A stretch of DNA of 64,000 bases from a virus (lineage: Duplodnaviria > Heunggongvirae > Uroviricota > Caudoviricetes). Position numbers and translations under genes: made by a program. The notes beneath the pieces were generated by a model. It was not told the origin of the DNA and did not search any database. It worked only from the letters and a program-made list of their open reading frames with translations. Location: positions 253,336 to 317,335 of IMG/VR virus record IMGVR_UViG_3300009709_000001. The stretch is one strand, 5' to 3'. Shown here one piece after another: positions 1 through 22,185 of the stretch. The stretch's first letter is position 1, and every line of letters starts with the position of its first letter.

Positions 1-97
1 AAAATTTCGCCTATAGAAGAAAGGTGACCTCTATAGGATTTGGATAGAATTTTTAGTTGCGGCTTGCCTCCGAAAAAAATAATTCGGTGGTCTCTAC

Positions 98-147
98 AGT
101 ATACACGCTGACTGGGATTTTTGCAACCTATTTTACATTTTGTTACA
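98..147 (-). promoter_or_regulatory. sigma70-like promoter with upstream direct-repeat box, firing out of the window
   Basis: Minus strand TGTAACAAAATGTAAA, then TTGCAA-N17-TATACT. Confidence 0.65.
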
Positions 148-155
148 AAGTAACC

Positions 156-189
156 AAAAAAAGGTAGCCTCGTGTTGCCACGGGCTACC
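156..189 (-). terminator. intrinsic terminator
   Basis: GGTAGCC...GGCTACC stem with A7 on its left (U-tract on minus strand). Confidence 0.6.
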
Positions 190-249
190 GTAAGGCGCGC
201 TCAGGTGCAGCGCGCAGCAGGGAGAAACTGTTACATCTATGTTCTTGAC

Positions 250-540
250 TTACGCCGCTTGCGGGCGTAGCATGGCGGGGAGCTGACCCGGCTCGAGCCC
301 GGCTTCGATCATGTCCCAGCCCTTGGGTGCCTTGAGCAGCAGGCCGTCGGGGGTATAGCCGTACGCCACACGCAGGGCCTGCAGCCGCACGTACAAGGGT
401 GCGACAACATCTGCGGCTGCAGCCACGGCAAGGCCTTCGGGGGCGGACTCCAGGGTGTCGAACAGGACATCCGCTTGTTGGATAGCATTCGACAGGGCCA
501 GCAAGGCCTGTCGTGCTTCTTGGTGCGTGATCGTGTGCAT
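250..540 (-). CDS. hypothetical early protein
   Basis: AGGAG RBS, own promoter, GC3-rich codons. Confidence 0.8.
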   Translation of the reverse strand: MHTITHQEARQALLALSNAIQQADVLFDTLESAPEGLAVAAAADVVAPLYVRLQALRVAYGYTPDGLLLKAPKGWDMIEAGLEPGQLPAMLRPQAA

Positions 541-579
541 GTGTGTGGCTCCTGCGGGTGGTTGTTTTGCTATGTATGT

Positions 580-628
580 ACTATAAGATCAACCTCGCGA
601 TGCGTCAACGCCTGTTACATCTTGTTGC
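580..628 (-). promoter_or_regulatory. sigma70 promoter with GTAACA box
   Basis: GCAACAAGATGTAACAG-gcg-TTGACG-N17-TATAGT. Confidence 0.85.
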
Positions 629-995
629 ATCTGCCTTGCGAGGCCGTTGTGTTATACTCGCGTACGGTCATAAACAAAATCTATTTGACACACCGTGGCG
701 AAAACCTCACTAGTGAAAACGCTATCAGTGTTTGCCATAGTACACGGAGCGCGCAAGTGTGTTAGTATGTATTCAACACAGCGCATAACAGCTCACCCAT
801 AACCCAGTCAAGCTCATGGGTATTGCGGCGCGCTGCTGTAGTCAAATAACAACAGCCCTGCGAGACATGCACTAAGCGAGGGAAGGGCACCCTCATAAAT
901 GTTGCCAAAATCCCACAGCGCGAGGACAAGTGAAGATGTAACAGACACCCTAAACTGTAACAAGATATAACTAACATCCTGTTACATCTTGCACT

Positions 996-1169
996 CTACA
1001 GTTCGCTACCAGCCATGAACGCTGCTGTCGCGTCGTCGACTTCCTCTTCGTGTGCCTCTTCCAGTGTGGAGTAGCCATGACGCGAGCCCATGCTCCCCAT
1101 CATGTGCCAGAAGAAGTCCAGGTCCGTCTGTGCGACGGTGTGCTCGATGCTGTCGCAGTGGATGCTCAT
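996..1169 (-). CDS. hypothetical protein (57 aa, MSIHCDSIEH..., not in ORF track)
   Basis: Hand translation; follows 1179-1403. Confidence 0.65.
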   Translation of the reverse strand: MSIHCDSIEHTVAQTDLDFFWHMMGSMGSRHGYSTLEEAHEEEVDDATAAFMAGSEL

Positions 1170-1178
1170 GCTGTGCTC

Positions 1179-1403
1179 CTACCAGGGGATGATTTGGGTC
1201 TTGGCGCGCATGCCGTTTGCCAGTTGCCACACGCGGCACTCCTGCAAGCTGCCAATCATGTGTGCGCTGCACGCGCACACACCGGGGATCTTACCCGCGT
1301 CGCTGACAACGGTGTGGCTGAAGGGCACGTGGGCGCCGTCACTCTCTTCCCAGCGCCTGCGGGTGCGTACATCCTGCTCTGCCAGTGGCTTCTCTTGGTT
1401 CAT
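1179..1403 (-). CDS. hypothetical protein
   Basis: AAGGAG RBS, promoter TAGACT-N17-CATAAT upstream. Confidence 0.75.
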   Translation of the reverse strand: MNQEKPLAEQDVRTRRRWEESDGAHVPFSHTVVSDAGKIPGVCACSAHMIGSLQECRVWQLANGMRAKTQIIPW

Positions 1404-1654
1404 CGCTTCTCCTTGTTGCGATGTATGTATTATGTGTTCATGCGCGCGTGCAGTCTAGTCAATTTACAATCTGTTACATCTGTTTCGCCTCGCAAAGAAG
1501 CCCGCCAGAATGCCTCCTAAGGTGCGAGGCCAAATTGAAAAAGTGAATCCAGGCTCCAAATCCACACAGGAATTGGAACCCGAAAAGGAAAATTGTCAAC
1601 CGAAATTACGTGTGTAAATCCGGTTGACTTTTCTGTGCAGGCCGTTTAGGCTGG

Positions 1655-1888
1655 TTACAGGCCAGCGGCCAGACGGTGACCCTGTGCACGGCGCACGAGG
1701 GCAGCGGCCTTCTTCAGGTGGGGGTTGACCTTCTGGCCGATGTAGGTGCCGCCGAGGGGCGTGGGATTGATGATGGCGCCCAGGATGACGGGGAAGTTCA
1801 GCTTGGGGACACGGCCGCCGCTGCCACGCAGACCCCTGGAGTGGTACTTGGGCTTCGCCTGCTGGGGCTTCTTTTCCTTGTCGGACAT
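1655..1888 (-). CDS. small basic hypothetical protein (MSDKEKKPQQ...)
   Basis: AGGAG RBS; promoter 1923-1971. Confidence 0.8.
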   Translation of the reverse strand: MSDKEKKPQQAKPKYHSRGLRGSGGRVPKLNFPVILGAIINPTPLGGTYIGQKVNPHLKKAAALVRRAQGHRLAAGL

Positions 1889-1922
1889 GGTGTGCTCCTT
1901 TGCACTGTTGGTTGATGTTGTT

Positions 1923-1971
1923 ACTATAACGCCACTTGGTGGTAGCGTCAACCGCTGTTACATCTTGTTAC
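1923..1971 (-). promoter_or_regulatory. sigma70 promoter with GTAACA box
   Basis: GTAACAAGATGTAACAG-cgg-TTGACG-N17-TATAGT. Confidence 0.85.
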
Positions 1972-2165
1972 GCCTGCTCGATGTGCTGGGCGACAATGCG
2001 GGCCGCGCTGTCCACACCATCGTGCATGTTGATGACACCGCTCTCCATGAGGTTCCAGCAGAGGTCGCCGCTGTCGTTGAGGTCGTACTGGTCTTTCACA
2101 GCCTTGTCAACCTCTTTCGCAAAGATGTGGTGTTCAGTGGGATCGATGCTGACGGGCAGTTCCAC
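1968..2165 (-). CDS. hypothetical protein
   Basis: ORF downstream of boxed promoter; start uncertain. Confidence 0.65.
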   Translation of the reverse strand: MELPVSIDPTEHHIFAKEVDKAVKDQYDLNDSGDLCWNLMESGVINMHDGVDSAARIVAQHIEQA

Positions 2166-2230
2166 GTAACACCGATCGGTGTCTCCCAGGGGTTCTTGGG
2201 GCGTGATGCTCTCCTGCTGTTGATGTTGTT

Positions 2231-2279
2231 ACTATAGCTTCACCTCGCGACGTTGTCTACACCTGTTACATCTTGTTAC
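2231..2279 (-). promoter_or_regulatory. sigma70 promoter with GTAACA box
   Basis: GTAACAAGATGTAACAG-gtg-TAGACA-N17-TATAGT. Confidence 0.85.
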
Positions 2280-2331
2280 GAGGCCATTGCAGCCAAAACG
2301 AAAGGGGACTAGAATCCCCTTAGCGCTGTTT

Positions 2332-2535
2332 TCAGTGGTGACGGATGGTTAACCCCTCCACGTCATAGCCGTCGACGTATGCACGCCTATACGCCACGTA
2401 GGGCACCGGAATTTGAAACTTCTTGTACAGGTCGATGACTTCCTGCAGCTTGCCACGGTTGACAGTGTGGCCAGCCTTCACAGCCACTGCCACCGCCACA
2501 ATGGTTGTAGCGGAATTGTTGTCGATTTGCAACAT
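2332..2535 (-). CDS. hypothetical protein
   Basis: Operonic ORF, terminator-like hairpin at ~2295-2322. Confidence 0.7.
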   Translation of the reverse strand: MLQIDNNSATTIVAVAVAVKAGHTVNRGKLQEVIDLYKKFQIPVPYVAYRRAYVDGYDVEGLTIRHH

Positions 2536-2539
2536 GATG

Positions 2540-2854
2540 TTAGTCGTTCCAGATAGTCAGATACCAGCCCGCGAGCTTGGGGTGCGCGCGGAGCGTCTCG
2601 TGTGTGGGCTTGAATGTCCACTGCACCACGTCGTTGTCAGCATCCGTCTCCGGGCTCTGCAGGTACCAATGCGTGCGGTTGCCCGTCTCGGGGTTGTCCA
2701 ACGTGATGCCCACGTCGCACGCATCGTCGTACAGGGGACCAAACGGTTCCATCCCTGCCCTGAAACCCAGGCTGCTAGCCTCTGCGCTGAAATACTTCTC
2801 CTCCGCATTGCGGGTGAAGTCCAGCGTAAGGCGAATGTGGGGGTTGAGTTGCAT
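2540..2854 (-). CDS. hypothetical protein
   Basis: AAGGAG RBS, own promoter. Confidence 0.8.
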   Translation of the reverse strand: MQLNPHIRLTLDFTRNAEEKYFSAEASSLGFRAGMEPFGPLYDDACDVGITLDNPETGNRTHWYLQSPETDADNDVVQWTFKPTHETLRAHPKLAGWYLTIWND

Positions 2855-2879
2855 GGTTGCTCCTTGCTGCTATGTGTTC

Positions 2880-2927
2880 AGTATAGCATCAAGAAGCGCA
2901 GCGTCAACCCCTGTTACATCTGCTTAC
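2880..2927 (-). promoter_or_regulatory. sigma70 promoter with GTAACA box
   Basis: GTAAGCAGATGTAACAG-ggg-TTGACG-N16-TATACT. Confidence 0.8.
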
Positions 2928-3061
2928 AAGGCCAGAATGCCGTTGACAACGTCTCGCGTTTCGTTGTAGAGTTTCAGCAAGGCAGCATCGCCCAGCTGTG
3001 CGAGATGGCGCTCGCTGTGCTGCGAGTGCTCGAGGAGGTATTCGGTGATGAGCTTGCGCAT
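2924..3061 (-). CDS. hypothetical protein (MRKLITEY...)
   Basis: Internal ATG of track ORF 2924-3205. Confidence 0.6.
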   Translation of the reverse strand: MRKLITEYLLEHSQHSERHLAQLGDAALLKLYNETRDVVNGILAL

Positions 3062-3063
3062 GG

Positions 3064-3240
3064 CTAGGCCTGCTTGATGAGGTTGATGAGTGCGTCCTGC
3101 GTGAACTGCCCGTACTGCTGGGCGAACGCGGGGTCCGTGCAGGCGTGCTTCATTGCGAGGGCCACCGCAGTGGCTTCCATGTGCGTTGCCCCGCTCGCCG
3201 TACACTGGGCAACGATTTTGTTGAAAGTGGCTTCGTCCAC
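3064..3240 (-). CDS. hypothetical protein (GTG start, 58 aa)
   Basis: AGGAG RBS; hand translation VDEATFNKIV...LIKQA. Confidence 0.65.
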   Translation of the reverse strand: MDEATFNKIVAQCTASGATHMEATAVALAMKHACTDPAFAQQYGQFTQDALINLIKQA

Positions 3241-3266
3241 AATGTGGCTCCTGTTACGATGCTTCT

Positions 3267-3315
3267 ATAATAGCACCACTTAGTGGGTGTGTCTACCTCT
3301 GTTACATCTTGTTAC
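3267..3315 (-). promoter_or_regulatory. sigma70 promoter with GTAACA box
   Basis: GTAACAAGATGTAACAG-agg-TAGACA-N17-TATTAT. Confidence 0.8.
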
Positions 3316-3556
3316 GCCTGCGCTGCAACCCATCCTCGTGCCGCTTGTTCATGCTGCGCATGGTGGCCCACGCCAATGCGAGGGCGTGCGGCTTGGGGAC
3401 ACGCCAGGTGCCATCCTCGTGAAGGACTTCATCCGCGTGTCCACCTCGGCAGGGGATGATGTAGCAGTCGTCGTCGAAATCCCACACCACTTTCACCTCG
3501 TCCGCGGCTTCCTGCTGCAGGGTGAGGGGCAAGCAGTAAACGCCTTCAATAAGCAT
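3302..3556 (-). CDS. hypothetical protein
   Basis: AAGGAG RBS, own promoter 3579-3623. Confidence 0.75.
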   Translation of the reverse strand: MLIEGVYCLPLTLQQEAADEVKVVWDFDDDCYIIPCRGGHADEVLHEDGTWRVPKPHALALAWATMRSMNKRHEDGLQRRRNKM

Positions 3557-3578
3557 GGGAACTCCTTAACATGCCTAC

Positions 3579-3623
3579 AGTTTAGCACCGCTATATATAC
3601 TGTCAACCGCTGTTACATCTTAC
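3579..3623 (-). promoter_or_regulatory. sigma70 promoter with GTAACA box
   Basis: GTAAGATGTAACAG-cgg-TTGACA-N16-TAAACT. Confidence 0.75.
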
Positions 3624-3790
3624 CCGCCTTGGGCCTCGTGATGTGTACTTTTGTAAAGCATTGTAAAGGAACGTAAAGCAGCAAAAAACGGTAGACAGCC
3701 CCTCGCGATTCTGATATAGTACATACATGGACAGCAAACAAGCAAACAACAAAGGCAAGCGCGCTGTTCATAGCGCTTACGCAACAAATC

Positions 3791-3834
3791 TTTACAATGT
3801 AACGGTTGACAGCAGCAGCGCAAACGGTTACTAT
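3791..3834 (+). promoter_or_regulatory. divergent sigma70 promoter with box
   Basis: TTTACAATGTAAC-gg-TTGACA-N17-TACTAT. Confidence 0.8.
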
Positions 3835-3871
3835 ATAGACACTTCCAACCCACAGTGCAAAGGAGCACAAA

Positions 3872-4429
3872 ATGGCAGACAAAGGAATCCGTCCCGAAGC
3901 CCTCCGTAAGTTCCTGCAGGACCTCCCGTCCCGCGAGAACACTCGCCTGGGCAACCGCAACTTCCGTGCAGGCGTCATCACGCACCTGATGGAACAGTTC
4001 AAGATCCCGCTGCACAGCGCGGCGACAGCGTACAACAACGCTTTCATCGCTGCGCGCGAGATGGCGGCGGGCAACGTCGAGAAGAAGATCGAGCCCAACG
4101 CGGAACTGGCAGCGCAGCTGGTGGGCCTGGGCCGCCCCGAGGACAAGAAGGGGGGCCGCAAGAAGAAGGCGGTTGCTCCGGCAGCGACCCCGGGCACGCC
4201 CGAGGTGGGCGGTGCGGCAAGTGACGTGCTGTCCAGCAACATCCTGGGCAGCGGCGAAGACGAGGGCGACGGCGACGAAACGCCCCCGACAGCCAAGGTG
4301 AAGGTCATCCAGCGCAACGGCAAGGCGGGGCCCTGGGAATTCGACGACGAGGCGGCCGCCCAGGAGTTCCTGGGCGAGAACACCGGCAAGGTGGGCCAGC
4401 CCAAGATGTTCATCGAAGGCAAGGAGTAA
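3872..4429 (+). CDS. putative helical DNA-binding protein, SAATxYN paralog family
   Basis: AGGAG RBS; FRxxV...SAATAYN...LGRPEDKKGGRK shared with 41152, 47651, 35969. Confidence 0.75.
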   Translation: MADKGIRPEALRKFLQDLPSRENTRLGNRNFRAGVITHLMEQFKIPLHSAATAYNNAFIAAREMAAGNVEKKIEPNAELAAQLVGLGRPEDKKGGRKKKAVAPAATPGTPEVGGAASDVLSSNILGSGEDEGDGDETPPTAKVKVIQRNGKAGPWEFDDEAAAQEFLGENTGKVGQPKMFIEGKE

Positions 4430-4436
4430 TCCGGAA

Positions 4437-4455
4437 GGGGGCGAAAGCCCCTTTT
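4437..4455 (+). terminator. intrinsic terminator
   Basis: GGGGC-GAAA-GCCCC-TTTT. Confidence 0.8.
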
Positions 4456-4481
4456 CGTTTGGCCGAAAAAAGGAGATCGAG

Positions 4482-4700
4482 ATGGCAAGCGCCGTTTATG
4501 AAGTTGACCACGAAACCCGTCTGGTTATGCCAGACACGGATTGGTCTTGCCAAGTCCTCGGCAAGATCGTGCAGCAGGGCCACGCGGTAATCAAGGTCGG
4601 AGAATCCCCCGAGTTGGTTGCCCGTGTGGAACGGGAGCGCACGCAAGCTGAACTCGACCGCCGGGACATCCTTGTCGCTGGCACGGGCATCGCACCCTAG
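4482..4700 (+). CDS. hypothetical protein
   Basis: AGGAG RBS. Confidence 0.75.
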   Translation: MASAVYEVDHETRLVMPDTDWSCQVLGKIVQQGHAVIKVGESPELVARVERERTQAELDRRDILVAGTGIAP

Positions 4701-5165
4701 GTCGGTTTTCAACGCAAGAAGGGCACTCCAGGTGCCCTATTCTCACGAGTAGATTGTCGGCAGTGAATAAGACAGTTTGGTGTCTTAGGCCGAGTAATAT
4801 GTTATGCCGATCTACTTTGCGACGCTTGCAATGTTTCTATTCTTGAAAGATTGCAGTGGCACCAACCTGTGCACAGGTCTTACCCTCAGATCACAAATCA
4901 AACAGCTCCATTGTTTCGATTGTCCTCGTATGCGAGGCAGAGCCCATGATTAGACCTGGTTGTTCATCTAGGATAGCTACCTATGCGGCTACACTAGGCA
5001 TTGCGAGGCAGGATTAGCCGAAAAAGGTGGAATCTAAAGAGCTGTCTCGCGTTTGAAGGTGCAGGTGCAGGTGACAGGCTTGCGTCAGAACCTGTCGCAA
5101 ATTTCCAATTTTGATTTCCAAATCTGAATTGGAAACCTAAAAAGGAAAATTGGGCCTGTTAGTTG

Positions 5166-5390
5166 CTACGAGCCCTCTGAGTCATAGCGGCCAAGCAACT
5201 CGTTAGTATCCGGCGGTTTGCATGCGCTGCAGGGGCTGTCCTTGTACTGCCGATCCTGCTGTGCAAACACGCGGTTAGCGTAGCACATAAGCAACACCAT
5301 ACCGAAGCTGATGATGGCTCCACCCGTAGCACCAATACCGATGCCGAAGATACCCATCACACAGAAGAGATACATGAAGAACTTAATCAT
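5166..5390 (-). CDS. small membrane protein
   Basis: Two hydrophobic segments; start MIKFFMY. Confidence 0.7.
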   Translation of the reverse strand: MIKFFMYLFCVMGIFGIGIGATGGAIISFGMVLLMCYANRVFAQQDRQYKDSPCSACKPPDTNELLGRYDSEGS

Positions 5391-5613
5391 GGTTGCCCTT
5401 GACAACTTCGATGTCAGCGACGTTGGAATAGATCCAGCAGACAGCGCCGATGCATGCCAACGTGTTCGCAAGCGGAACCACACTCCAGAAAATGGTCCAG
5501 ATGATGTTTGCCACTGTGAGGCTGTCGCCTTTCTTAATTGCGAACATCCAAGCAATGGGAACCAGCACGGCGTACAGTGCAATGCACAGCAGGTATAATT
5601 CAATCGGGCCCAT
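5383..5613 (-). CDS. small membrane protein, PxxN family
   Basis: TM segments, VPLANT motif. Confidence 0.7.
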   Translation of the reverse strand: MGPIELYLLCIALYAVLVPIAWMFAIKKGDSLTVANIIWTIFWSVVPLANTLACIGAVCWIYSNVADIEVVKGNHD

Positions 5614-5658
5614 AGCAGTCCTTTCTTACTGCTATTGTACGCGCTGGGCCAAAGGCTG

Positions 5659-5952
5659 TCAATCCCTCAGCCGCAGTTTGTGAAGATCGATGCTGCGACA
5701 CACCATCTGGTTGTGCATCTCCCTTGCGGTGTGGCATGCCCTGTAGAAGTTTTCGTTGTTATCCGGACTCACATGGATGGTGTAGTGTCCAAAGGGATTC
5801 TGCCCCAGGTCACCCTTGTCTTCACAGATGAGGATGCCGTGGCACACATGGGAACTCTCGTTCCACTCCACTTCGACACCGTTCTTGAAGTCCGGGTCGT
5901 ACATGCGGCGGACTTCAAATTTGGAGACAGTCTCGACAATGGTTGCCATCAC
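5659..5952 (-). CDS. hypothetical protein
   Basis: ATGA-coupled operon. Confidence 0.75.
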   Translation of the reverse strand: MMATIVETVSKFEVRRMYDPDFKNGVEVEWNESSHVCHGILICEDKGDLGQNPFGHYTIHVSPDNNENFYRACHTAREMHNQMVCRSIDLHKLRLRD

Positions 5953-6311
5953 ACTTCCTTCCAGAACCAGGGTTGAATGATCTGTCCGGCACCGCTATAG
6001 CATTCATAGAGGTGCCGTGCTTGCTGCACTTTGATGCCGCGCAGTGCCTGCGTCACCGCATCACGGGCTTCCTTGCTGGTTGCCGACCAGGAGATCTCCC
6101 ACAGGGTATCCGAAAGCCAGTAGTCCCAGCGGCAGATGTCCCAGCCCGGGAAGTCCTGTAAGCAATCGACCGCATCCCACAGACGGATGCCATCAATGTT
6201 CTGGTCGTCGTGGTGTGCAACATTGAGCACGAGCTTGCCATGCCAATTGTGGTGCGACAGGTCCTTGAGTTCCACACAAGGCCAGTCTTCTTCGAGCTCA
6301 GCGGTTGTCAT
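5949..6311 (-). CDS. hypothetical protein
   Basis: ATGA-coupled operon. Confidence 0.75.
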   Translation of the reverse strand: MTTAELEEDWPCVELKDLSHHNWHGKLVLNVAHHDDQNIDGIRLWDAVDCLQDFPGWDICRWDYWLSDTLWEISWSATSKEARDAVTQALRGIKVQQARHLYECYSGAGQIIQPWFWKEV

Positions 6312-6595
6312 GGCTTGCGAAGCTCCTCTTCGAATTGTTCCCAGACGGCCTGTTCATTGCCGCACACTTCGGCGAACAGCATGTTCAGAACTTCGGTCAT
6401 GGCATCCGGGCTGTGCCCCAGCATGCGTTGAGTAGCTGCGATGAAGCCCTCGATGTCATCGGACATCAGGTAGCTGCGCATCGCCTCGCAATGCTGCACC
6501 ATGCTCAACGTGCCATCCTGGCCCCAAAGTGCTTTGGTATCCTGAATGTGCAAACGGACTTTGGTGAGCGCTTGGTTAACGCTATCGACTGACAT
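6308..6595 (-). CDS. hypothetical protein (MSVDSVNQ...)
   Basis: AAGGAG RBS; promoter TTGACA-N17-CATAAT. Confidence 0.75.
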   Translation of the reverse strand: MSVDSVNQALTKVRLHIQDTKALWGQDGTLSMVQHCEAMRSYLMSDDIEGFIAATQRMLGHSPDAMTEVLNMLFAEVCGNEQAVWEQFEEELRKP

Positions 6596-6654
6596 TAGGT
6601 GCTCCTTGCTGCTATGTAGAACATTATGCAGCAAAGGACCGGTCATGTCAACAG

Positions 6655-6963
6655 TTACTTGAAGGCCGATTCCCGCAGCACCACGCAGAAGGAGCGCTTG
6701 CAGCATGCCCAGTAGGGACCCTCGATGAAGTATCCCCCGAGGTAGGCAGCACCGTAATGCTTCTTCAATGCGGCGTCCAACTTCTTCTGCTTTTCTTGCG
6801 TGGCTTCCCACACATCGTCAGCCAGCCAGAGTTTCAGGCGCCGTTGACCATTCTTCCGCAGATGCGTGAAGGTCACGCGGGCATATTGACCCGATGTCTT
6901 GGGGTTGAAACCAGCTTCCTTCATGGCAGTCATGAGTGGCGCCTTGTAGTTCATCCTTGCCAT
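6655..6963 (-). CDS. hypothetical protein
   Basis: AAGGAG RBS. Confidence 0.75.
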   Translation of the reverse strand: MARMNYKAPLMTAMKEAGFNPKTSGQYARVTFTHLRKNGQRRLKLWLADDVWEATQEKQKKLDAALKKHYGAAYLGGYFIEGPYWACCKRSFCVVLRESAFK

Positions 6964-7021
6964 AACCTGCTCCTTGTTGCTATGTCTACATTATGCAGCT
7001 ATTGCAACGGACATACGACCG

Positions 7022-7168
7022 TTAAATGGAGACCAGCTCCGACCAATTGCGAGTGAAACCCTTCCTGTATTCTCGCCATTCTTGTGAATAGCAAGTGTAG
7101 GGATTAGCATATAATCCCAGCTTGGCATCTGCCTTGCCAAGGTTGTACGCATGATCATTTCGTGGCAT
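7022..7168 (-). CDS. hypothetical protein (MPRNDHAYNLG...)
   Basis: Internal start of track ORF. Confidence 0.55.
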   Translation of the reverse strand: MPRNDHAYNLGKADAKLGLYANPYTCYSQEWREYRKGFTRNWSELVSI

Positions 7169-7487
7169 CAGCGAACCAAACGTAGGCACCAGCCATGAAC
7201 AGCATCGAATCCCACGTCGGCTTGTCTTCGTCGTGGTCCATGTGCTGGTCGTAGTGGTCCTCCTGGATGAGGAGAAGATCGCGCAGGCCTTGACCTTCAC
7301 CCGGCTCGCACTCGTCGAAGCTCGTGGTGATGTCCGTACATCCGTTCCAGATGTATTCGTCGAACATGCGTGCGATCTCTTTTCGACCCGCACTATAGTC
7401 GACGCCCTTATCCATGTTCTGGAGGCATTCGATGATGTAGTCAGCCTCCTGTAGTGCATCCTGCGAGGGCGTATAGTCGTCAGACAT
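7155..7487 (-). CDS. acidic hypothetical protein
   Basis: AGGAG RBS, start MSDDYTP. Confidence 0.7.
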   Translation of the reverse strand: MSDDYTPSQDALQEADYIIECLQNMDKGVDYSAGRKEIARMFDEYIWNGCTDITTSFDECEPGEGQGLRDLLLIQEDHYDQHMDHDEDKPTWDSMLFMAGAYVWFADATK

Positions 7488-7494
7488 AGGGCTC

Positions 7495-7710
7495 CTAGTT
7501 ATGACGGCAAAGCTCTTGGGAGCCGAAGCCGTACTTCTGTTTGATGCGACAGAACAGATCCGAATCGATATGTACTGCACCCTTTTCGTCGGTCCACGCC
7601 ATAACGAAAACGGTTGCGTGCTTGTTCCGTTCCATGCTAGTGACAGACACAGCGGTCAACCGCAGCTTGCCTGCACCCGTCTCTTCGGGCTTGAGATTGA
7701 GGATGCTCAT
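7495..7710 (-). CDS. hypothetical protein (MSILNLKP...)
   Basis: Operonic. Confidence 0.65.
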   Translation of the reverse strand: MSILNLKPEETGAGKLRLTAVSVTSMERNKHATVFVMAWTDEKGAVHIDSDLFCRIKQKYGFGSQELCRHN

Positions 7711-7894
7711 TGCAACCTCAGCTGGCCGCCGTCGTAGAAAGCCGCCTTGGTGATCTCCACCGTCGGTGGCCCGCCTTGTCGGCACAGTAGTAGACGCGAA
7801 CCTGGTGGCCGCAGCGGCGAGCTTCGGCTACCGGCGCATCGGCCTCCTGCTGGGGGACCTTCAACGTCAGGACAGCGGTACCACTTGCAATCAT
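7707..7894 (-). pseudogene. small ORF with apparent 1-nt deletion (~7770)
   Basis: 188 nt from ATG to TGA; adding one base gives a 62-aa ORF; possible sequencing error. Confidence 0.45.
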
Positions 7895-7903
7895 TTTCGA
7901 CTC

Positions 7904-8215
7904 CTACAGAAACGGTCGGACAAACTTGTCAATGAGAAACTCTTTGGCAGCATGCTCCGACTTGAAGACCTGGCTGCCTTTTGCAACCATTGCTCGTATG
8001 CTAGTCTGCCATGACACTAGTATAAAGTTAGGGCTATACACCCGTATAGAGCCATCCAGAATAGCGGGCCGGGAATACGAAACTTCCCAGAAAGCTTTTC
8101 CATTCGCCTCAGCCTTTGTTACAGTGCCACCAAAGGGATTCGTCAACCCACCAAAGATCACCGTATCCGCTAGATTAATAGCAACCTGCTGTCGTGGTGA
8201 GATGGGCTCTTGCAT
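7904..8215 (-). CDS. hypothetical protein
   Basis: Promoter TTGACC-N17-CATAAT at ~8223-8251. Confidence 0.75.
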   Translation of the reverse strand: MQEPISPRQQVAINLADTVIFGGLTNPFGGTVTKAEANGKAFWEVSYSRPAILDGSIRVYSPNFILVSWQTSIRAMVAKGSQVFKSEHAAKEFLIDKFVRPFL

Positions 8216-8259
8216 TCTTGTATTATGCTACGAGCCTCGCATTTGGTCAACAGATTATT

Positions 8260-9200
8260 GAATACACATACGAGGCAAAACCCTACTTCAACCTCGCGAC
8301 ACACAACCATAAAGCTCAATATGCCCGCGAGGCCATGTGAAACCCTGTGTTAAGCTGTATAGATCAGCAGTAAGGAAAACACGTACAAGCCCGAGGTTGA
8401 AACTCTGGCCCGCCCTCGCGATAGAAAGCTTCCCCGTAACTGTTTCATGCGAGGCCCGAAATCCGCATTCGAAACTCTAGTTACATCTTGTTACAATTGT
8501 TACACATTGAATCACAGAACCTTTACTATAAGAAAAAGAACCTAAGCTGAACCTTTGTGTAGAAAAATTGTTAGGGCGTTTTCTGCCTCGTATGCATAGC
8601 GTATAGAAAAACTACGTAGTGTAGATTCAATGCGAGGCTCTATGTAGTGTAGAAAAACACTGTGATCCACACCAGTTGTTTTTCAATGTAGTGCAGAATC
8701 AACACAGTGCGAGGCCGAGGTATTCACTGTGGGGAGAGGGTTTCTACCTTCGAGTAACCGTAAAGGCATAGACCGGTTCGAAAGGTTCGGCCTAGGGTTT
8801 CTTTAGAGTAAAGGAAGGTGATAGCCTAGGGTTTCTCTCGAAACATAAGCCTATCTTTGCAGCAGGGTATCGAATCGATTGCCTACACGGTTATCGACAG
8901 AGTTTCACGACGACATCGAGACTTCGACACCAAGACTGAGACTTTGGCCGAAATCAACGCCAAGACGGGCATCGACCGAGACTTTGGCCTCTACGCACAG
9001 AAATCGAGACTTTTCGACACAGACGCGCTCCTAGACACGCATCAACGCACCATCACTGCGATCTACGTGGGAATTCTGTGTGAAATTCCTATCTTCACCT
9101 TGAAAATCCTCTACACAGCCTAAGGTGGGTTTCCAATTTGAAATCTCAATTCTTCGAGAGAGATTCATGCAAAAAACCCGATTCTAGTTTCGTCCTGGAT
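8260..9200. repeat. ~950-bp non-coding region with several short repeat families
   Basis: CGAGG..GAAAC(C/T)CT at ~60-bp period, GTAGTGTAGA x3, TAGGGTTTC x2, GAGACTT x4, triple GTTACA box at 8480-8504. Confidence 0.75.
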
Positions 9201-9208
9201 TTCGGTTG

Positions 9209-9466
9209 TTAAACGGACGAATTCAAAGCTTTACAGCATCTGGGTTTATCATGTTTCGACCATGTCAAGAGATTTGCATAGAACAGCGGAATCCCACCTT
9301 TTACTATAATAACAGTTTTTTCTTGTAAAGGTAAATCATACCCGTTATCAATGAAGAACTTATCTGGAATTATGTGATACAGTATCACATAATCATATTC
9401 TGTCATAGTGTATTCAACTATGTCGTATTTCAGCTTTAGGAAGAGCTTATCTTCTGTTGAGATCAT
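9209..9466 (-). CDS. LKY-array paralog 25
   Basis: MISTEDKLFLKLKY. Confidence 0.85.
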   Translation of the reverse strand: MISTEDKLFLKLKYDIVEYTMTEYDYVILYHIIPDKFFIDNGYDLPLQEKTVIIVKGGIPLFYANLLTWSKHDKPRCCKALNSSV

Positions 9467-9695
9467 ATTGGTGAAGATTGGTGAAGAAATCTGCGAGATT
9501 AGGTATGTAGTTATAATCTATCTGAATAAGAATATCAGACACACCGAATATACTCGTGTAATTATGCATAGTGAAAAACTCTTCGGGTATTGAATGACCG
9601 ATGTTGAGTAGCCACAAATTTAAGTAGTCGTCTACACTTGTTTCTACTATACTGTATTTCAGCTTTAGGTAAACTTTATCTTCAGTGCTGATCAT
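9447..9695 (-). CDS. LKY-array paralog 24
   Basis: MISTEDKVYLKLKY. Confidence 0.85.
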   Translation of the reverse strand: MISTEDKVYLKLKYSIVETSVDDYLNLWLLNIGHSIPEEFFTMHNYTSIFGVSDILIQIDYNYIPNLADFFTNLHQYDLNRR

Positions 9696-15791: not shown

Positions 15792-16057
15792 TATTCGTCC
15801 TCCTTAGGTTTCTTAACGAAGAACTTCTTATTCCACAGATTGGCATCTTCCATGATTGCATGACCGATACCGAAGATGAATACCAGAGTCGCAAGCGTAT
15901 TGATTATCGGCACAAATGCAATTATTGGAATACCGATTACGGAGACACAAATATCACTAAGTGTGAGACATCCTTGATCATCCCATTGTGCCCAAAGCAT
16001 CAATCCACAACAGGCAAGCGCAATGATTGCGCTCAAGATATAAATGGCCAGAAACAT
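15791..16057 (-). CDS. small membrane protein, PxxN family
   Basis: IYILSA...FVPIIN. Confidence 0.8.
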   Translation of the reverse strand: MFLAIYILSAIIALACCGLMLWAQWDDQGCLTLSDICVSVIGIPIIAFVPIINTLATLVFIFGIGHAIMEDANLWNKKFFVKKPKEDE

Positions 16058-16074
16058 TTCGTCCTTTCGTTCGT

Positions 16075-16335
16075 TTAACTTATTCCGTATCGTCCAAAAT
16101 ATTCGGACAGATCGTCCATCAATTCCCAGTCAGTTACTTGATCAATTTTTCTTGACCAGTCCCATTTATTATCTTTCTGGACGTATTCGCGATACTTGTA
16201 TCTAATTAGAAAGTCGTCCGGAAATTGGGTAAGGTAGGCCGTTCTCGCGTACCAGCCTTCCCATCCAGTCAACTTACCCATTGGTGGATGACCGTACTTT
16301 AGGACAATGATTGTTTCAATTTCCGGCACGGACAT
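16075..16335 (-). CDS. LKY-family protein
   Basis: MSVPEIETIIVLKYG. Confidence 0.8.
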   Translation of the reverse strand: MSVPEIETIIVLKYGHPPMGKLTGWEGWYARTAYLTQFPDDFLIRYKYREYVQKDNKWDWSRKIDQVTDWELMDDLSEYFGRYGIS

Positions 16336-16521
16336 ATTTGTATAATTCGTCTTCGACAAGCATCTTGGTAGTTGCCTTTATCCAGAATCCATCGGTGTAG
16401 TTGAACATCTCTTTGAATTTGTCCGGCAGGCCTAGAATAAATGCAGCACGCTCGACCCTGTCAGCGGGCACTGGCCCAAACGTAATTTTACCAGCGTCTG
16501 GATTTCTTTTATGGATGACAT
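16316..16521 (-). pseudogene. LKY-family ORF with apparent 1-nt homopolymer deletion (~16478)
   Basis: 206 nt; adding one T gives MSSIKEIQTLVKLRFGPVP... Confidence 0.55.
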
Positions 16522-16711
16522 ATAGGAAAAGGGCTTTTGATAGCCCTTAGTTTAACACAGCTGGATAGAAACTCTCAACTTGAGCGCACAGCCCAAGCAC
16601 GCAAACAACCTAGAAATCAAGCACTAAATTGCACGGAAAAACGCAAATGCAGCACTGGAAAAGTGCTGCACAGGGTCTGGGCTTGCGTGCTTTTGCACGC
16701 GCTGCAATGTT

Positions 16712-16879
16712 TCAGAGCTTAACCAGATGCAGGAGTTGTCCGGCAACGTTCCAGCAGGCCAAGCACATCAGATGAATGATGATAACACGGCCCGCATAGG
16801 TGACTTTGCCCCACCTGAAGAAAGCGCCGACAACCATTGCTGTGATGAACAATGTGAAGACTACATGGAGCGTGAACAT
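16712..16879 (-). CDS. small membrane protein
   Basis: Hydrophobic; promoter upstream. Confidence 0.6.
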   Translation of the reverse strand: MFTLHVVFTLFITAMVVGAFFRWGKVTYAGRVIIIHLMCLACWNVAGQLLHLVKL

Positions 16880-16954
16880 TTCAATCATCCTCAAAATTGC
16901 GATGGACAAATAGTAACAGGAGCCGAAGCCCCTGTCAACCACGTTGCGAAGCGT

Positions 16955-17548
16955 TTAGTGCTTCGTGCCGTCGCCACCAAAGGCGCGCAGATCGAAGTTG
17001 CCGTCGCCAGGCTTCACGTCGGCGGTGTTGTGTTCGACACCAGGCCCGGGAGGGAGGCCGTCGATCTCGGCCGGCAAGTTGTCGAGGTTGCCCAGGACCT
17101 TCACCTGCACGTGGTCGGGGATACCGAGGGCCTGCCGGAGTGCCGCTTCGATGCCGGCCGCGGGCTTCGGCGCGTAAGGGCCAGTCTTCATCATACGGTG
17201 CACGGCGTCGTCGTACTGTTCCTTGGTGCCGCCGGGGATGTTGCGTTCCAGGGACTTGCGGATGCTGGCCGCCACCATGGCTTCCATCTCCTCGCGCGGC
17301 GGCGGGTTGTCGCTTTCCATCAGGTCGTTGATGCGGACCATTTCGCGGGTGGATTCCTGCATGTGCGCGGGCAGCAGATGGCAGTAGGTCTTGCCGATGT
17401 AGTACATTGACGGCAGTTCACGGAACTGGGCCGCCATCATGTAGGCCTCCGCCAGTGCCGCCGGCCCGTGTTCGGCCAGGTCGTCGATGAGCATCTTGGA
17501 CACGGTGTCCATCATCTCGCTGAGTTTCGGTCGACGTTGCGTTTCCAT
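16955..17548 (-). CDS. hypothetical protein (GC-rich)
   Basis: GGAGG RBS; promoter TTGACA-N17-CATAAT. Confidence 0.85.
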   Translation of the reverse strand: METQRRPKLSEMMDTVSKMLIDDLAEHGPAALAEAYMMAAQFRELPSMYYIGKTYCHLLPAHMQESTREMVRINDLMESDNPPPREEMEAMVAASIRKSLERNIPGGTKEQYDDAVHRMMKTGPYAPKPAAGIEAALRQALGIPDHVQVKVLGNLDNLPAEIDGLPPGPGVEHNTADVKPGDGNFDLRAFGGDGTKH

Positions 17549-17627
17549 GGTTAAAGCCTCCTTGGCTTTGCGTTGATCGTGCTCTAATTATGTGGCAGGG
17601 CACGTGGTCTGTCAACAGATTATTGAA

Positions 17628-18188
17628 TTAGTATTGCGACAGAATATCGTCGATTCTTTTTTGTCTTTTCTGATAATGGACGATAATAGCACCGATTTGG
17701 ACTCTCTCAACATGCAAGGGATCTTTCTTTCGACCCCTCTGTGTCTCGGAAGATTTTCTTTTCTGTTCTTCGGTTCTGTGTAATCCAGTTCTCGATGCCG
17801 ACATCTTAGCGCGTGTCGAATCCTTTGTTGCCACCCTTCTCAATTGGGACTCGGAGTTCTTTTTCTTGCGGGCCTCGCTATGTGGAACTTTTCTTGCATC
17901 GGACATTCTTCTTTTAATCCATCCGAATAATTTATTGTTTGTTCTTGTGCCATCACCGGACTGTGTCATTAGCATGGCAGCATAAACCAATTTTGGATTA
18001 TCTGGGTGCATTCTGACAAGAAGCTGATGTGCAAGATAATGCTCTTCGGGCGTAAGACGAACAATGTTTATCTTATCATCATTGCCACCCATGCACTTAG
18101 GAATAATGTGGTGGCGTTCCGTATACTCGGATATTGTTCTATATTTTGCGCGATAGATAAGGCAGTAGTAGATGAATTCGTATTTCAT
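17628..18188 (-). CDS. free-standing HNH homing endonuclease with NUMOD3-like tail
   Basis: ERHHIIPKCMGG...LTPEEHYLAH; HSE..K..S repeats. Confidence 0.85.
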   Translation of the reverse strand: MKYEFIYYCLIYRAKYRTISEYTERHHIIPKCMGGNDDKINIVRLTPEEHYLAHQLLVRMHPDNPKLVYAAMLMTQSGDGTRTNNKLFGWIKRRMSDARKVPHSEARKKKNSESQLRRVATKDSTRAKMSASRTGLHRTEEQKRKSSETQRGRKKDPLHVERVQIGAIIVHYQKRQKRIDDILSQY

Positions 18189-18199
18189 CCACTATTTAC

Positions 18200-19072
18200 T
18201 CAGAAACTTGCAGGTATCCCGATTTTTCCGCAATTAGCCTTATACGTTCCACGGGCCAGCTGGCGATCGTAGCCGTTCACACGCATCATTTCGGCAATGA
18301 TCTGTTCGTATGTCTTACCGGAATGAAACCAGTGATAGATGATCTTTCGGCTAATGGAGGCCTTGCTTTCACCGGTATTGATAGAAACTGCAGGACCGGA
18401 GGCCGAGGGGGATGGTCGTACAGTAGCAGGGCGCACTACAGGCGCAATCTGTCCAACGCTTGCAGGGGCTGTAACCGTGCTTGCAGCGCGTTTTCCAACA
18501 AACGGCCCCTGCTTTTGTGCCAACGTATGACCGTCGACACCCACAATGTAATACGTGGAACCCGGCAACACCGAACCCCAGCTTGCCTTCGTGTAATCCA
18601 ACGGAATACCGACTGCAAGCTTTGCATGCCACTTTTCATTCAGTCGCACAGTCTTACCGGTTGTGGTAACATATTCGAACGTGCGGCCCTTTCCGTGCAC
18701 CGTTTCTTGAGTGTGAAGACGTGCCCCAGTTCCACCGAGTGCCCTGCAAACCGAATACCAGCCTGCATCATGGCCGTATCCCAGTTCCGGCCGCATATCA
18801 CAAACGATATGTGCAACTTCATGCGGCAGGGTTTCGTTGATCATTTCATCGGGATTCCGATGAAGCATATCTCGGTTGAACTTGACCTTTGCCCACAGGA
18901 CTTCTCCTGCGTCATTCTTCCTCGTAAGTGCCCATCCGGCCACCCGACCACGAAGATTGAAGCTCACCTCCATATTGGAGAGGTCGACCTGATATGCGCG
19001 CTTGACGGTTTCGACAAGCTCCTTGAAGCGTGCAAGGAGACGTTGTTCCGGAGTTTGGGTGGTCTGCATCAT
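18200..19072 (-). CDS. SprT-like Zn metalloprotease with C-terminal helical DNA-binding-like module
   Basis: LRGRVAG, TLPHEVAH (HExxH), GHDAGW. Confidence 0.85.
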   Translation of the reverse strand: MMQTTQTPEQRLLARFKELVETVKRAYQVDLSNMEVSFNLRGRVAGWALTRKNDAGEVLWAKVKFNRDMLHRNPDEMINETLPHEVAHIVCDMRPELGYGHDAGWYSVCRALGGTGARLHTQETVHGKGRTFEYVTTTGKTVRLNEKWHAKLAVGIPLDYTKASWGSVLPGSTYYIVGVDGHTLAQKQGPFVGKRAASTVTAPASVGQIAPVVRPATVRPSPSASGPAVSINTGESKASISRKIIYHWFHSGKTYEQIIAEMMRVNGYDRQLARGTYKANCGKIGIPASF

Positions 19073-19374
19073 GCTTCCTTCAGGCCTTCGACCTCGCAGG
19101 AGTTGTCATCTTCACCGTGCGAAATACGAGTGAATTCGGCTGCAATCCATTCTTGCATGGGCAGCACGGGCTTCGGACGCATGCCACGGAACTGGCTGTC
19201 GTACCAGTCGTTCTTCAGGACTTCCATCGGGCTGTCCATCCGTTCGATGATGATCACGCAGCTATGGAATCCATGCACACCGGAATGCTGCATCACAGTC
19301 ACTGCCATTTCACGGTCCCAGAACATATACTGCTGGTTTGCTGAAATGTGAATTTGGTTAGGCTTAACAATCAT
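19069..19374 (-). CDS. hypothetical protein
   Basis: AGGAG RBS, promoter upstream. Confidence 0.7.
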   Translation of the reverse strand: MIVKPNQIHISANQQYMFWDREMAVTVMQHSGVHGFHSCVIIIERMDSPMEVLKNDWYDSQFRGMRPKPVLPMQEWIAAEFTRISHGEDDNSCEVEGLKEA

Positions 19375-19511
19375 GTTCTCAACTCCTGCTTGCGATGTAT
19401 GTATTATGTGCAAATGGTCGGAAATGGTCAATACCTGATTTCACAAAAGGCGAAAAGGACCGCACGGATCCTTTTCGCGAATCGAACGCATCCCCGTGGA
19501 CTGCGTGTCGA

Positions 19512-19988
19512 TTACTCGGCCTTGGCGTCGGCGGCCGGGGCAGCAGCGCCGCCTTCGGTGGTCGAAGCAGCCGGGGCCTCGGCCTTCTTGGTCGGCTTCT
19601 TGCCTTCGATCGGGGCAGCGACACCCTTGTCGGCGACCTTGGGCTGGTTGGCCTTGTAGGTGCCGCGCGCCAGCTGGCGGTCGTAGCCGTTCACGGTGAT
19701 CATCTCGGCGATGATCTTCTCGTACAGGGCCGTGGCGTCCAGGCGCTCGCCTTCGGGCAGGGCGTTGTTGGCTTCGGTCAGCGACACCATGATGCCGCGG
19801 GACTTGTCGGCCTTCGACTGGGGCTTCGGCTCGGCCTTGGGCTTCTCGACGGCCGTCACGGTCAGACCGCCGGTGGCGCTGGCGTCGGTGGAAACGGTGG
19901 GCTCGACGACGGTGCTGTCATTGGCGAAGCGGGTCAGCGACGTGGCAGCCAGCGTGGCGAGGGCGAGGGAGGTGTGGAGCTTCTTCAT
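19512..19988 (-). CDS. Ala/Lys-rich protein sharing the C-terminal module of the SprT gene
   Basis: YEKIIAEMITVNGYDRQLARGTYKAN; very GC3-rich. Confidence 0.85.
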   Translation of the reverse strand: MKKLHTSLALATLAATSLTRFANDSTVVEPTVSTDASATGGLTVTAVEKPKAEPKPQSKADKSRGIMVSLTEANNALPEGERLDATALYEKIIAEMITVNGYDRQLARGTYKANQPKVADKGVAAPIEGKKPTKKAEAPAASTTEGGAAAPAADAKAE

Positions 19989-20153
19989 AGCGATTCCTTA
20001 GCGGAAGAGTTTGGCCAAAATCGGCCGGGGCATCACGACGCACCATGCGTCGAGAATCGGTTACAACTTACTTGGCGCTTTGTTTGTTGCGGCGCTTTGT
20101 TTGTTGCGATGTCTGTATTATGTCTGCTCTGCTGGACGACGTCAACTGTTTTT

Positions 20154-20684
20154 TTAGGCTTTAGAAAGCGCCGTTGCAGCAATTTTCTTGTTTGCGGAAT
20201 CGTAGGCACGCATGTGAAGCTTGATGATGCCACGAAGACGCGGAATTTCATTGCGATCGAAACGTTCGTTCCAGCCAGACTCCTTTCGCGCAAGGAATTC
20301 AGCTTCTTCGAGGCTCAGCCGTCCTGGATAAGGCCTGAAATCCCGAAGCTTCTTTCCGGACTTCGCAATGCCGTCGGAGTCCACGAAGTAATTCACGCCA
20401 TCGATGTCCACTTCAAGGGCAACGTGGGTGAAGTACACACCACATTCTTCCCATGCCTGGAGATTGGGCACAGAGGAGGGCATTCTCCAGCGCACCTTAT
20501 CGATGTTTGTGCTTCCGATGTTGGCGCTGTCGGAAACCACGACTACCGAACATGGAATTTCTCGTTTCTGGAGTTCTTTGCCTAGAAGCGAAGCGTATAC
20601 GCAACAACCACCGTGGTTGATATCCGTAATCGCATCACTTGCAGCCGCTCCAAGGCTAAGCAATCGAGTAAGGAGGATGTTCAT
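20154..20684 (-). CDS. putative Cys-His-Asp (transglutaminase/papain-like) protein
   Basis: GGCCVYA...FTHVAL...YFVDSDG. Confidence 0.5.
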   Translation of the reverse strand: MNILLTRLLSLGAAASDAITDINHGGCCVYASLLGKELQKREIPCSVVVVSDSANIGSTNIDKVRWRMPSSVPNLQAWEECGVYFTHVALEVDIDGVNYFVDSDGIAKSGKKLRDFRPYPGRLSLEEAEFLARKESGWNERFDRNEIPRLRGIIKLHMRAYDSANKKIAATALSKA

Positions 20685-20686
20685 GA

Positions 20687-20995
20687 TCAGAAGAACGAAT
20701 GAGTGAGCTTGGTGTTCAGAAATTCGTTGATGGATTCGAACGGGCCGACTTCGTCGTTTTGGATTTCCCAACCGTTGCGACGGGCACCACCGAGGATGTC
20801 GCTGTCGTCGCCACCGTAGAACTTGAAGTCTACGGCGAACAGGTTGTCATCATCCTGAAAGAGGATGGCATACCACGCTTCGGCGCTGCGAACTGCGACT
20901 ACTTTCGACAACAGTTTTTCGTCCGCGAAGCCATAGACCTCGATCAGCTTCTTGAAGTGTTCGGGGATCTGCGAAAGGGTAGAAATCTTGGGCAT
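20687..20995 (-). CDS. hypothetical protein
   Basis: AGGAG RBS, own promoter. Confidence 0.8.
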   Translation of the reverse strand: MPKISTLSQIPEHFKKLIEVYGFADEKLLSKVVAVRSAEAWYAILFQDDDNLFAVDFKFYGGDDSDILGGARRNGWEIQNDEVGPFESINEFLNTKLTHSFF

Positions 20996-21076
20996 TTGCT
21001 GCTCCTGCGCGTGATGTTGTTATTATGTGATCAGCGATGGAGACTGTCAATCGGCTTTTGAAGTTTGCGCCGATCC

Positions 21077-21265
21077 TCACGTGAAGATTTCCATCTGTGC
21101 GAAGCGCTCGTGATGTACCATGCGGGTTTCGCCGGGAACATCGGTTGTCACGATGAAACAGGAACCTGCCCAGCCCAATGCCGTGTATTCTTTGCCCACG
21201 GTCATCACGTCAGCAGACGTATCGTTGGGCGCTTCATTGAGCTTGACTTGGGAGGGGAACTTCAT
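21077..21265 (-). CDS. hypothetical protein (MKFPSQV...)
   Basis: Operonic. Confidence 0.65.
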   Translation of the reverse strand: MKFPSQVKLNEAPNDTSADVMTVGKEYTALGWAGSCFIVTTDVPGETRMVHHERFAQMEIFT

Positions 21266-21266
21266 T

Positions 21267-21542
21267 TCAGTCTTTCTTATCGGATATGGGTCTGGTTCCC
21301 ATGTGGTTTGCATGGATGGCTATTGCTAGGCCGAAAGTTAGGCCTACCCAGAACAGCGCCCAGATGGAGACTGCCAGGAAGAACACGGTGGCGAGTGTGA
21401 CGATACCCGCAAGGCTGGTGGCCGCGTACAGGGTTTGGGCATCGGTCATCTTGACGATGCCCTCCATACAGAAGACTGTCACCAACCAGAGGATCTCCAT
21501 CCCCAGAATGATGAGGAGTGCAGGAAAGAATTCCATGTTCAC
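21267..21542 (-). CDS. membrane protein
   Basis: Multiple hydrophobic segments. Confidence 0.7.
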   Translation of the reverse strand: MNMEFFPALLIILGMEILWLVTVFCMEGIVKMTDAQTLYAATSLAGIVTLATVFFLAVSIWALFWVGLTFGLAIAIHANHMGTRPISDKKD

Positions 21543-21784: not shown

Positions 21785-21785
21785 C

Positions 21786-22124: not shown

Positions 22125-22185
22125 CTTGACTCCTGTGTTGCAGTATCTAAATTGTGCTACCTGCTACGCGGATTGTCAACAAGTA

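Follow-up and report, generated by a model that had tools for sequence, protein, structure and literature searches.

A 64,000-nucleotide stretch of viral DNA (hereafter the window; positions 253,336–317,335 of the 385,394-bp IMG/VR record IMGVR_UViG_3300009709_000001) begins with a run of small genes whose sigma70-type promoters are, for the most part, preceded by a short direct repeat just upstream of the −35 hexamer. The question raised by this locus is what, if anything, reads that repeat, which we call the box. An earlier note, made from the letters of the window, had proposed that the earliest genes are wired either to a host two-component regulator of the OmpR/PhoB family or to a phage activator. 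By combining motif counts and promoter scans with comparison to related phages and structure prediction, we find that the box is very probably a phased protein-binding site. As its reader we tentatively favour a phage-encoded regulator, the conserved protein family of gene 3872–4429, over a host response regulator.

A tandem box in register with the −35 hexamer

Sequences matching GTAACA-N4-GTAACA with at most two mismatches occur 18 times compared to 3.6 expected, a number that none of 100 shuffles attains. The exact 10-mer GATGTAACAG is found ten times in the whole record (0.74 expected), and all ten copies fall within 3.4 kb, at window 228–3619. Every copy of the box listed in the earlier note is present where it had been placed, and its promoter positions were recovered exactly by a consensus scan, which returned 12 sigma70-type promoters compared to 1.9 expected. 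These include minus-strand promoters with −10 ends at 98, 580, 1429, 1923, 2231, 2880, 3267 and 3579, and plus-strand promoters at 3692–3720 and 3806–3834.

The minus-strand layout is stereotyped. In six copies, the box is followed by 3 nt, a TTGAC or TAGAC −35, a spacer of 16–17 nt, a TATAGT-like −10, a conserved leader, a Shine–Dalgarno sequence and the start codon. Seven of the minus-strand promoters carry the box or its GTAAA variant and the eighth (3579) has the proximal unit alone. The box had been described as sitting at a fixed position, and indeed the proximal GTAAN begins exactly 10 nt before the −35 at all eight, a distance that is constant whether the −35/−10 spacer measures 16 or 17 nt; the weaker distal GTAA unit lies 10 bp further upstream. 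Some details needed correction. The supposed extra copy at 1471 is the distal unit of an ordinary box promoter whose proximal unit is GTAAAT, and at the plus-strand promoter at 3806, which had been counted with the others, GTAAC lies 7 nt and not 10 nt from the −35, that is, 3 nt out of register. The other plus-strand promoter (3692) has three GTAAAG units with a 10-bp period, the nearest of them 19 nt upstream.

The period is not confined to this genome: in six phages, the clusters show a sharp peak at exactly 10 bp in the same-strand spacing of GTAA(A/C/G); GTAAN spacing is flat in the other 376 kb of the record studied here. Among 99 strict promoters from seven loci, GTAAN starts 10 nt before the −35 in about 36 and 11 nt before it in only one. 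When 47 promoters from five closely related phages are aligned, 11 positions of the proximal unit hardly change, while sequence varies freely in the 3-nt linker and in the spacer of the promoter. The TGTAA of the proximal unit does not vary, within the pattern by which these promoters were gathered, and the flanking A, G, A and G are present at 83–94%, compared to 66, 62, 81 and 79% for the G, T, A and A of the distal unit. The TAA of the distal unit is the stop codon of the upstream gene in some copies, and the unit is also retained in non-coding DNA (2263–2279) and where it is read through as codons (3299–3315). The box appears to be under purifying selection.

Box units also occur away from promoters, at 935–988 and at 8480–8504. 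The first of these arrays has larger equivalents in related contigs (L160, L167 and L165) that form palindromic double arrays or pairs, with up to nine facing units in L160. The binder would therefore have sites beyond promoters, which makes a repressor- or iteron-type role conceivable.

The earlier note had suggested scanning the genome and related phages for the box, and such a scan finds it clustered in this genome and again in relatives. Searching viral contigs with the pattern uncovered the same promoter clusters in G001 (369 kb, with 11 exact 10-mers within about 12.5 kb) and G002, and across the whole collection these two are the only ones, besides the record that contains the window (G000), with the exact box-promoter type in several copies. 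Homologues of the one conserved protein led to further contigs (L160, L162/L169/L174, L163, L165, L168, L170, L171, L173 and L175–L178), and at least ten related uncultured jumbo phages retain both the box and its register. Across relatives the proximal unit is offset from the −35 by 10 nt, or by 19–20 nt, one helical turn more, with a single exception at 11 nt, and box variants hold the same register in distant relatives.

The −35 itself is degenerate in three of these contigs (L168, L169 and L170). In L168, where the box reads TGTAAAGATATGTAAAG, the −35 position of two promoters is taken by CACACT or GAACTT. In L169, ten promoters combine GTAAC-N5-GTAAA with TTGCAT- or TTGTGT-type hexamers, mostly together with a TGn-TATAAT extended −10. 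A box kept while the −35 decays would give these promoters the look of activator-dependent ones, and the box likely acts positively. The activator-type anatomy claimed earlier, a putative protein-binding site arranged head to tail and in helical phase with the −35, is supported.

Other readings of the box were tried and rejected. As the −35 element of an extracytoplasmic function-type or phage sigma factor it lacks a conserved −10 located 16–17 nt downstream. The fixed −35 register and the promoter-less arrays point to the DNA level rather than to a signal read in the RNA where the upstream gene ends. Sites for IHF, CRP and FNR misfit in spacing, as judged by eye against their consensus sequences. 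Nor is the region taken for a long terminal repeat or a module of the genome end, as window 1–9200 is single-copy in the record and the record ends share an overlap of only 110 bp.

A box-bearing subclass of promoter cassettes

The core promoter and leader that follow the box are also present without it. As the earlier note had said, the later promoters (at 6.6, 8.2, 17.6, 19.4, 21.0 and 31.1 kb) lack the box, and where the cassette is box-less an AT-rich, TTCAAATAG-like element is found instead. At 6617–6651, 8250, 17615, 19431, 21050 and 37660, and in relatives, this element ends 3–4 nt before the −35, and it may be an UP-like element or a second operator class.

DNA similarity between phages in this region is restricted to the cassettes, and different genes lie between conserved cassettes when phages are compared. 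The spacers of the box-bearing promoters, which we term class A, fold better than shuffled sequences (mean z of −1.09 compared to −0.27 in controls, p = 0.0025). Spacers, sometimes together with the −35, lie inside inverted repeats that are specific to each copy (window 580–3619; loci L140, L142, L160 and L165), as exemplified in G001 by ACAGGGG..CCCCTGT around TTGACA. T4-type phages carry promoter-early stem-loops (PeSLs), in which a strong sigma70 promoter has an AT-rich stretch upstream and a stem-loop that may overlap the hexamers or sit between them; PeSLs cluster in front of ORFans and serve as points of recombination (PMC2839356, PMC4122927). The copy-specific inverted repeats and low folding z fit the PeSL stem-loop. 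Judged from their sequence, the cassettes match T4-type PeSLs, and what is new is a cassette subclass in which a specific tandem box replaces the AT-rich element.

This likeness bears on whether a dedicated factor is needed at all. The box could have been inherited within one mobile cassette lineage by descent or recombination, or could be contacted by the alpha subunit of RNA polymerase in the manner of an unusual UP element. Indeed, the cassettes behave as PeSLs do, being conserved in ORFan regions while the flanking genes differ, and the box sits where box-less cassettes have their AT-rich element. We nevertheless consider a box without its own factor highly improbable. The 10-mer stays invariant while the adjoining linker and spacer vary, phased arrays exist away from promoters, and variants of the box keep their register in distant relatives. 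The UP consensus, moreover, is an A-tract, which the box does not resemble.

Candidate binders of the box

Seven clusters were compared, and 3872–4429 is the one gene that they all conserve. Its homologues always form an opposite-strand island amid small genes, and box units lie upstream of every homologue examined, including those of L163, L171, L173 and L175, where there are few or no other class A promoters. Of the five strict tandem boxes in the genome under study, four belong to the cluster. The fifth, alone in the remaining 376 kb, lies about 95 nt upstream of the start codon of 41155–41562, the sole full paralogue of 3872–4429 in this genome, a coincidence whose chance is of the order of 150/376,000. 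The conserved gene has strong promoters of its own, and boxes in both orientations are found at them.

The family numbers 81 members in metagenomes and has no Pfam domain. Three helices make up its N-terminal domain; the invariant GLGRPEDKKGGRKKK motif, a disordered linker and a small C-terminal domain complete the protein. All of 33 homologues share GLGRP..KKGGRKKK unchanged. Compared to an AT-hook, this motif has the G-R-P, followed by KKGGRKKK, and lacks the first Arg of the R-G-R-P core; RGRP is found in a partial paralogue. Arg, Asn, Thr and Tyr residues that never vary map to confidently folded helices of the AlphaFold model (predicted local distance difference test score more than 90). 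A helix pair of the form FR..V..SAAT.YN is also found in the proteins of 47654–47980 (−) and 35972–36481 (−), one of which has a canonical RGRP and neither of which has an upstream box.

Searches for better-known relatives returned nothing. The candidate protein has no homologues in cultured phages or in the genomes of bacterial and archaeal species, and neither it nor its conserved neighbours match Pfam or PHROGs. For the AlphaFold model, Foldseek found nothing at E ≤ 0.001, a profile search of the PDB was empty, the ESM Atlas gave nothing and the best VIA-align Z of 6.7 is within the noise for helical bundles. A profile of the N-terminal domain of the candidate did not detect the SprT-like protein of 18200–19072 at E ≤ 1, and this protein was dismissed as a relative.

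In the mechanism we propose, the box is built from at least two GTAA(C/A) units that follow each other head to tail along a single helix face, in register with the −35, and would mark class A as a separately regulated subclass of PeSL-like sigma70 cassettes in which it replaces the AT-rich upstream element. The 3872–4429 protein would be made early, from promoters expected to work unaided, and would next occupy the boxes, at about −36 to −55 and adjoining the zone that RNA polymerase contacts. Once bound, it would switch on or tune the class A genes as well as its own distal promoter, much as T4 MotA or lambda CII do, although neither the protein nor the geometry is theirs.

The strongest competitor, which we deem possible though rather doubtful, is a host regulator of the OmpR/PhoB family. 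An OmpR or CpxR orthologue would bind the boxes as a head-to-tail dimer and couple the promoters to the envelope or osmotic state, possibly to stress caused by the infection. On the other strand the half-site reads exactly GTTACA, the chromatin immunoprecipitation sequencing motif of the OmpR orthologue RisA (PMC11019879), and GTAAA-N5-GTAAA at 3653–3677 lies within the CpxR consensus GTAAA-N(4–8)-GTAAA (PMC5063474). The resemblance to Escherichia coli OmpR boxes, already remarked on in the earlier note, is close: copy 131–146 agrees with the C1 site of ompC (sequence from PMC2586830) at 14 of 16 positions. The 10-bp period is exact, the boxes lie at roughly −36 to −55, and the paralogue promoter has a 20-bp site, oriented like C1, that stops 5 nt short of the −35. 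Presumably, the promoter-proximal OmpR sites at ompF and ompC occupy this same place. A pre-existing host factor would also account for activator-type early promoters without any phage protein.

Several observations sit poorly with a host regulator. Most class A boxes have the orientation opposite to C1, and their proximal 10–11 bp are invariant, more than an OmpR-type half-site usually needs. Promoter-less facing arrays of up to nine units look more like the sites of a phage or plasmid protein, box variants differ among related phages and inside one phage, and the constant tie to one phage gene family is left unexplained. An OmpR-type winged helix (PF00486) was not found in G000, G001 or G002. 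Were a host OmpR- or CpxR-type protein the binder, the phage would sense the condition of the host envelope right at the start of infection.

A phage protein might also bind the boxes for a purpose other than activation, with the boxes serving as operators for early shut-off or autorepression, or as iteron-like replication or partition sites that touch nearby promoters, as with KorB, ParR and omega. The promoter-less arrays, one of them in a repeat-dense non-coding block (8480–8504) and others palindromic, would suit such a role, as would a regulator-like gene with boxes in both orientations at its own promoters and core promoters that need no help. Yet the boxes end upstream of the −35 without overlapping the core, a poor place for simple repression, and relatives retain the box while losing the −35, which fits activation rather than repression. 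We therefore hold a main role other than activation to be improbable.

Some points also weigh against an activator encoded by the conserved gene. Class A hexamers of the window approach the consensus as closely as those of box-less promoters do, so an activator would not be needed there. The sequence, 10-bp period and position of the box fit host OmpR- or CpxR-type regulators well. The candidate has no recognisable sequence-specific DNA-binding fold, its helices in the AlphaFold model being long (about 19 residues) and not of the helix–turn–helix kind; its AT-hook-like motif alone would read the minor groove with little specificity; and the genes of the family could be conserved targets rather than the source of the binder.

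We lean to the phage factor because no OmpR-type winged helix is encoded by the phage, because the box is tied to one phage gene family in every relative and because the window promoters are near consensus. More speculatively, the family may be a new kind of phage transcription factor, in which a three-helix domain and an AT-hook-like motif read phased GTAAC units, driving a delayed-early or middle promoter class in a giant T4-related clade without MotA and AsiA. This bears on how early genes are ordered in such phages, and the promoter subclass, its invariant short box and one conserved candidate make up a directly testable circuit. Whether the binder comes from phage or host, promoter and operator form a portable, compact module.

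Coordinates, genome setting and comparison with known systems

Table 1 Box promoters, box arrays and associated genes in the window (window coordinates).
Feature	Position	Strand	Details
Variant box promoter	98–146	−	−10 TATACT 98–103, −35 TTGCAA 121–126, box GTAACAAAATGTAAAA 131–146
Lone exact 10-mer, no promoter downstream	228–237	−	Between the stop of gene 250–540 and a terminator-like hairpin 164–181
Class A promoter	580–628	−	−10 580–585, −35 603–608, box 612–628, distal unit GCAACA; predicted to drive gene 250–540
Promoter-less box array, facing units	935–988	Both	GATGTAACAG on plus at 935 and on minus at 979–988; GTAACAAGAT at 957
Class A promoter	1429–1486	−	In-register units GAAACA, GTAACA, GTAAAT; −35 TAGACT, −10 CATAAT; predicted to drive genes 1179–1403 and 996–1169
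Class A promoter	1923–1971	−	Box 1955–1971; distal TAA is the upstream gene's stop; predicted to drive gene 1655–1888
Class A promoter	2231–2279	−	Box 2263–2279; distal unit non-coding, after a terminator-like hairpin 2302–2321
Class A promoter, 16-nt spacer	2880–2927	−	Box 2911–2927; predicted to drive genes 2540–2854 and 2332–2535
Class A promoter	3267–3315	−	Box 3299–3315, also coding the final residues and stop of gene 3302–3556
Class A promoter, proximal unit only	3579–3619	−	Unit 3610–3619; predicted to drive gene 3302–3556
Distal promoter P1 of the conserved gene	3651–3720	+	GTAAAG at 3653, 3663 and 3673, the last 19 nt from −35 TAGACA 3692–3697; −10 3715–3720
Proximal promoter P2 of the conserved gene	3799–3834	+	TTGACA 3806–3811, −10 3829–3834; single GTAAC 3799–3803 out of register (7 nt)
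Conserved gene, 185 residues, P0001 family	3872–4429	+	Candidate box-binding regulator
Three GTTACA units, no promoter	8480–8504	+	Spacing 10 and 9; within a repeat-dense non-coding block
Full-architecture paralogue of the 3872–4429 protein, 136 residues	41155–41562	−	
Paralogue promoter	41620–41674	−	−10 41620–41625, −35 TAGACA 41643–41648, tandem box 41659–41674

The box of the paralogue promoter has the opposite orientation, reading TTTACA..GTTACA towards the promoter and ending 10 nt from the −35. The spacer AAATCCCAGTCAGC of promoter 98–126 (−) is conserved in G001, L160 and L170. This promoter faces a short non-coding stretch with hairpins (window 60–126, −), and may drive a conserved small RNA. 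Some 300 bp at 640–935, flanked by a class A promoter and by the array of facing boxes, have no convincing gene; Rfam gave no match there or elsewhere in window 1–9500. Behind the 2231 promoter, a good Shine–Dalgarno sequence is followed by an in-frame ATC (window 2165–2192, −), and the first standard start, a GTG at 2165, comes 27 nt on; a non-standard start is possible for this gene. The ten small genes behind box promoters have no match in Pfam or PHROGs.

The window lies in the middle of its record and is not the start of the genome. The record has a G+C content of 43%, 53 transfer RNA (tRNA) genes and a transfer-messenger RNA (tmRNA), and encodes a T4-type DNA polymerase, RIIA, tail sheath and baseplate proteins. 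As these genes are T4-type and the polymerase shares only about 40% identity with its counterparts in Atu_ph07, Phosso and RaK2-like phages, the record is that of an uncultured giant T4-related myophage. A moss metagenome is the only public run that contains the whole stretch, and this DNA may have come from it; no RNA run is among the public runs listed as containing the stretch. DNA near-identical to it was not found in cultured phages.

Window 1–8000 has 55% G+C and very small genes that belong to no family. Blocks of 51–56% G+C, at window 1–8000 and 16000–28000, stand out from the 43% of the genome; the same contrast is seen at the box cluster of relatives, and the region is therefore not an assembly chimera. 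A tRNA with anticodon CUA, of the amber suppressor type, and the tmRNA lie outside the window (G000:144387–144463 and 149048–149415). Open frames read with code 11 cover 80%, so the genome seems to use the standard code. A sigma-70 region 4-like match occurs at G000:119301–119429, in a 255-residue frame outside the window, and at G001:230564–230692 (230 residues); this frame may encode a phage sigma factor for another promoter class.

Among known systems, PeSLs share with the cassettes a strong sigma70-type promoter with a stem-loop, repeated before ORFans in a hyperplastic, variable region, and conserved while flanking genes are swapped. Unlike PeSLs, class A has a sequence-specific tandem box and no AT-rich stretch upstream of the −35. 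With OmpR and CpxR sites the boxes share 10-bp direct repeats, half-sites of the GTTACA/GAAACA or GTAAA type, helical phase just upstream of the −35 and, in some relatives, a weak −35. They differ in that no such regulator is phage-encoded, most boxes are inverted compared to C1, the proximal unit is invariant over 10–11 bp and the −35 hexamers of the window are strong.

The proposed logic resembles that of T4 MotA and AsiA, in which an early phage protein and a short asymmetric box near the −35 turn on a second set of promoters. The MotA box, however, is centred at −30, replaces the −35 and needs AsiA, whereas the present promoters retain a −35 and have the box upstream of it; searches of G000 and G001 at E ≤ 1 gave no match to the MotA C-terminal domain (PF09158) or to AsiA (PF09010). 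Lambda CII is a phage activator that recognizes direct repeats, TTGC-N6-TTGC, with a 10-bp period at promoters with a poor −35. Its sites resemble the boxes in their repeats and period, but the CII repeats flank the −35, whereas both units lie upstream of it here, and the proteins have no similarity.

In KorB, ParR and omega, one small plasmid protein acts at many fixed-position sites over several promoters, with promoter-less arrays and autoregulation. The boxes are similar in having fixed positions at several promoters and promoter-less arrays. Whereas these plasmid proteins repress, from sites that are palindromic or contiguous heptads or 11-mers, the position of the boxes and the decay of the −35 suggest activation here.

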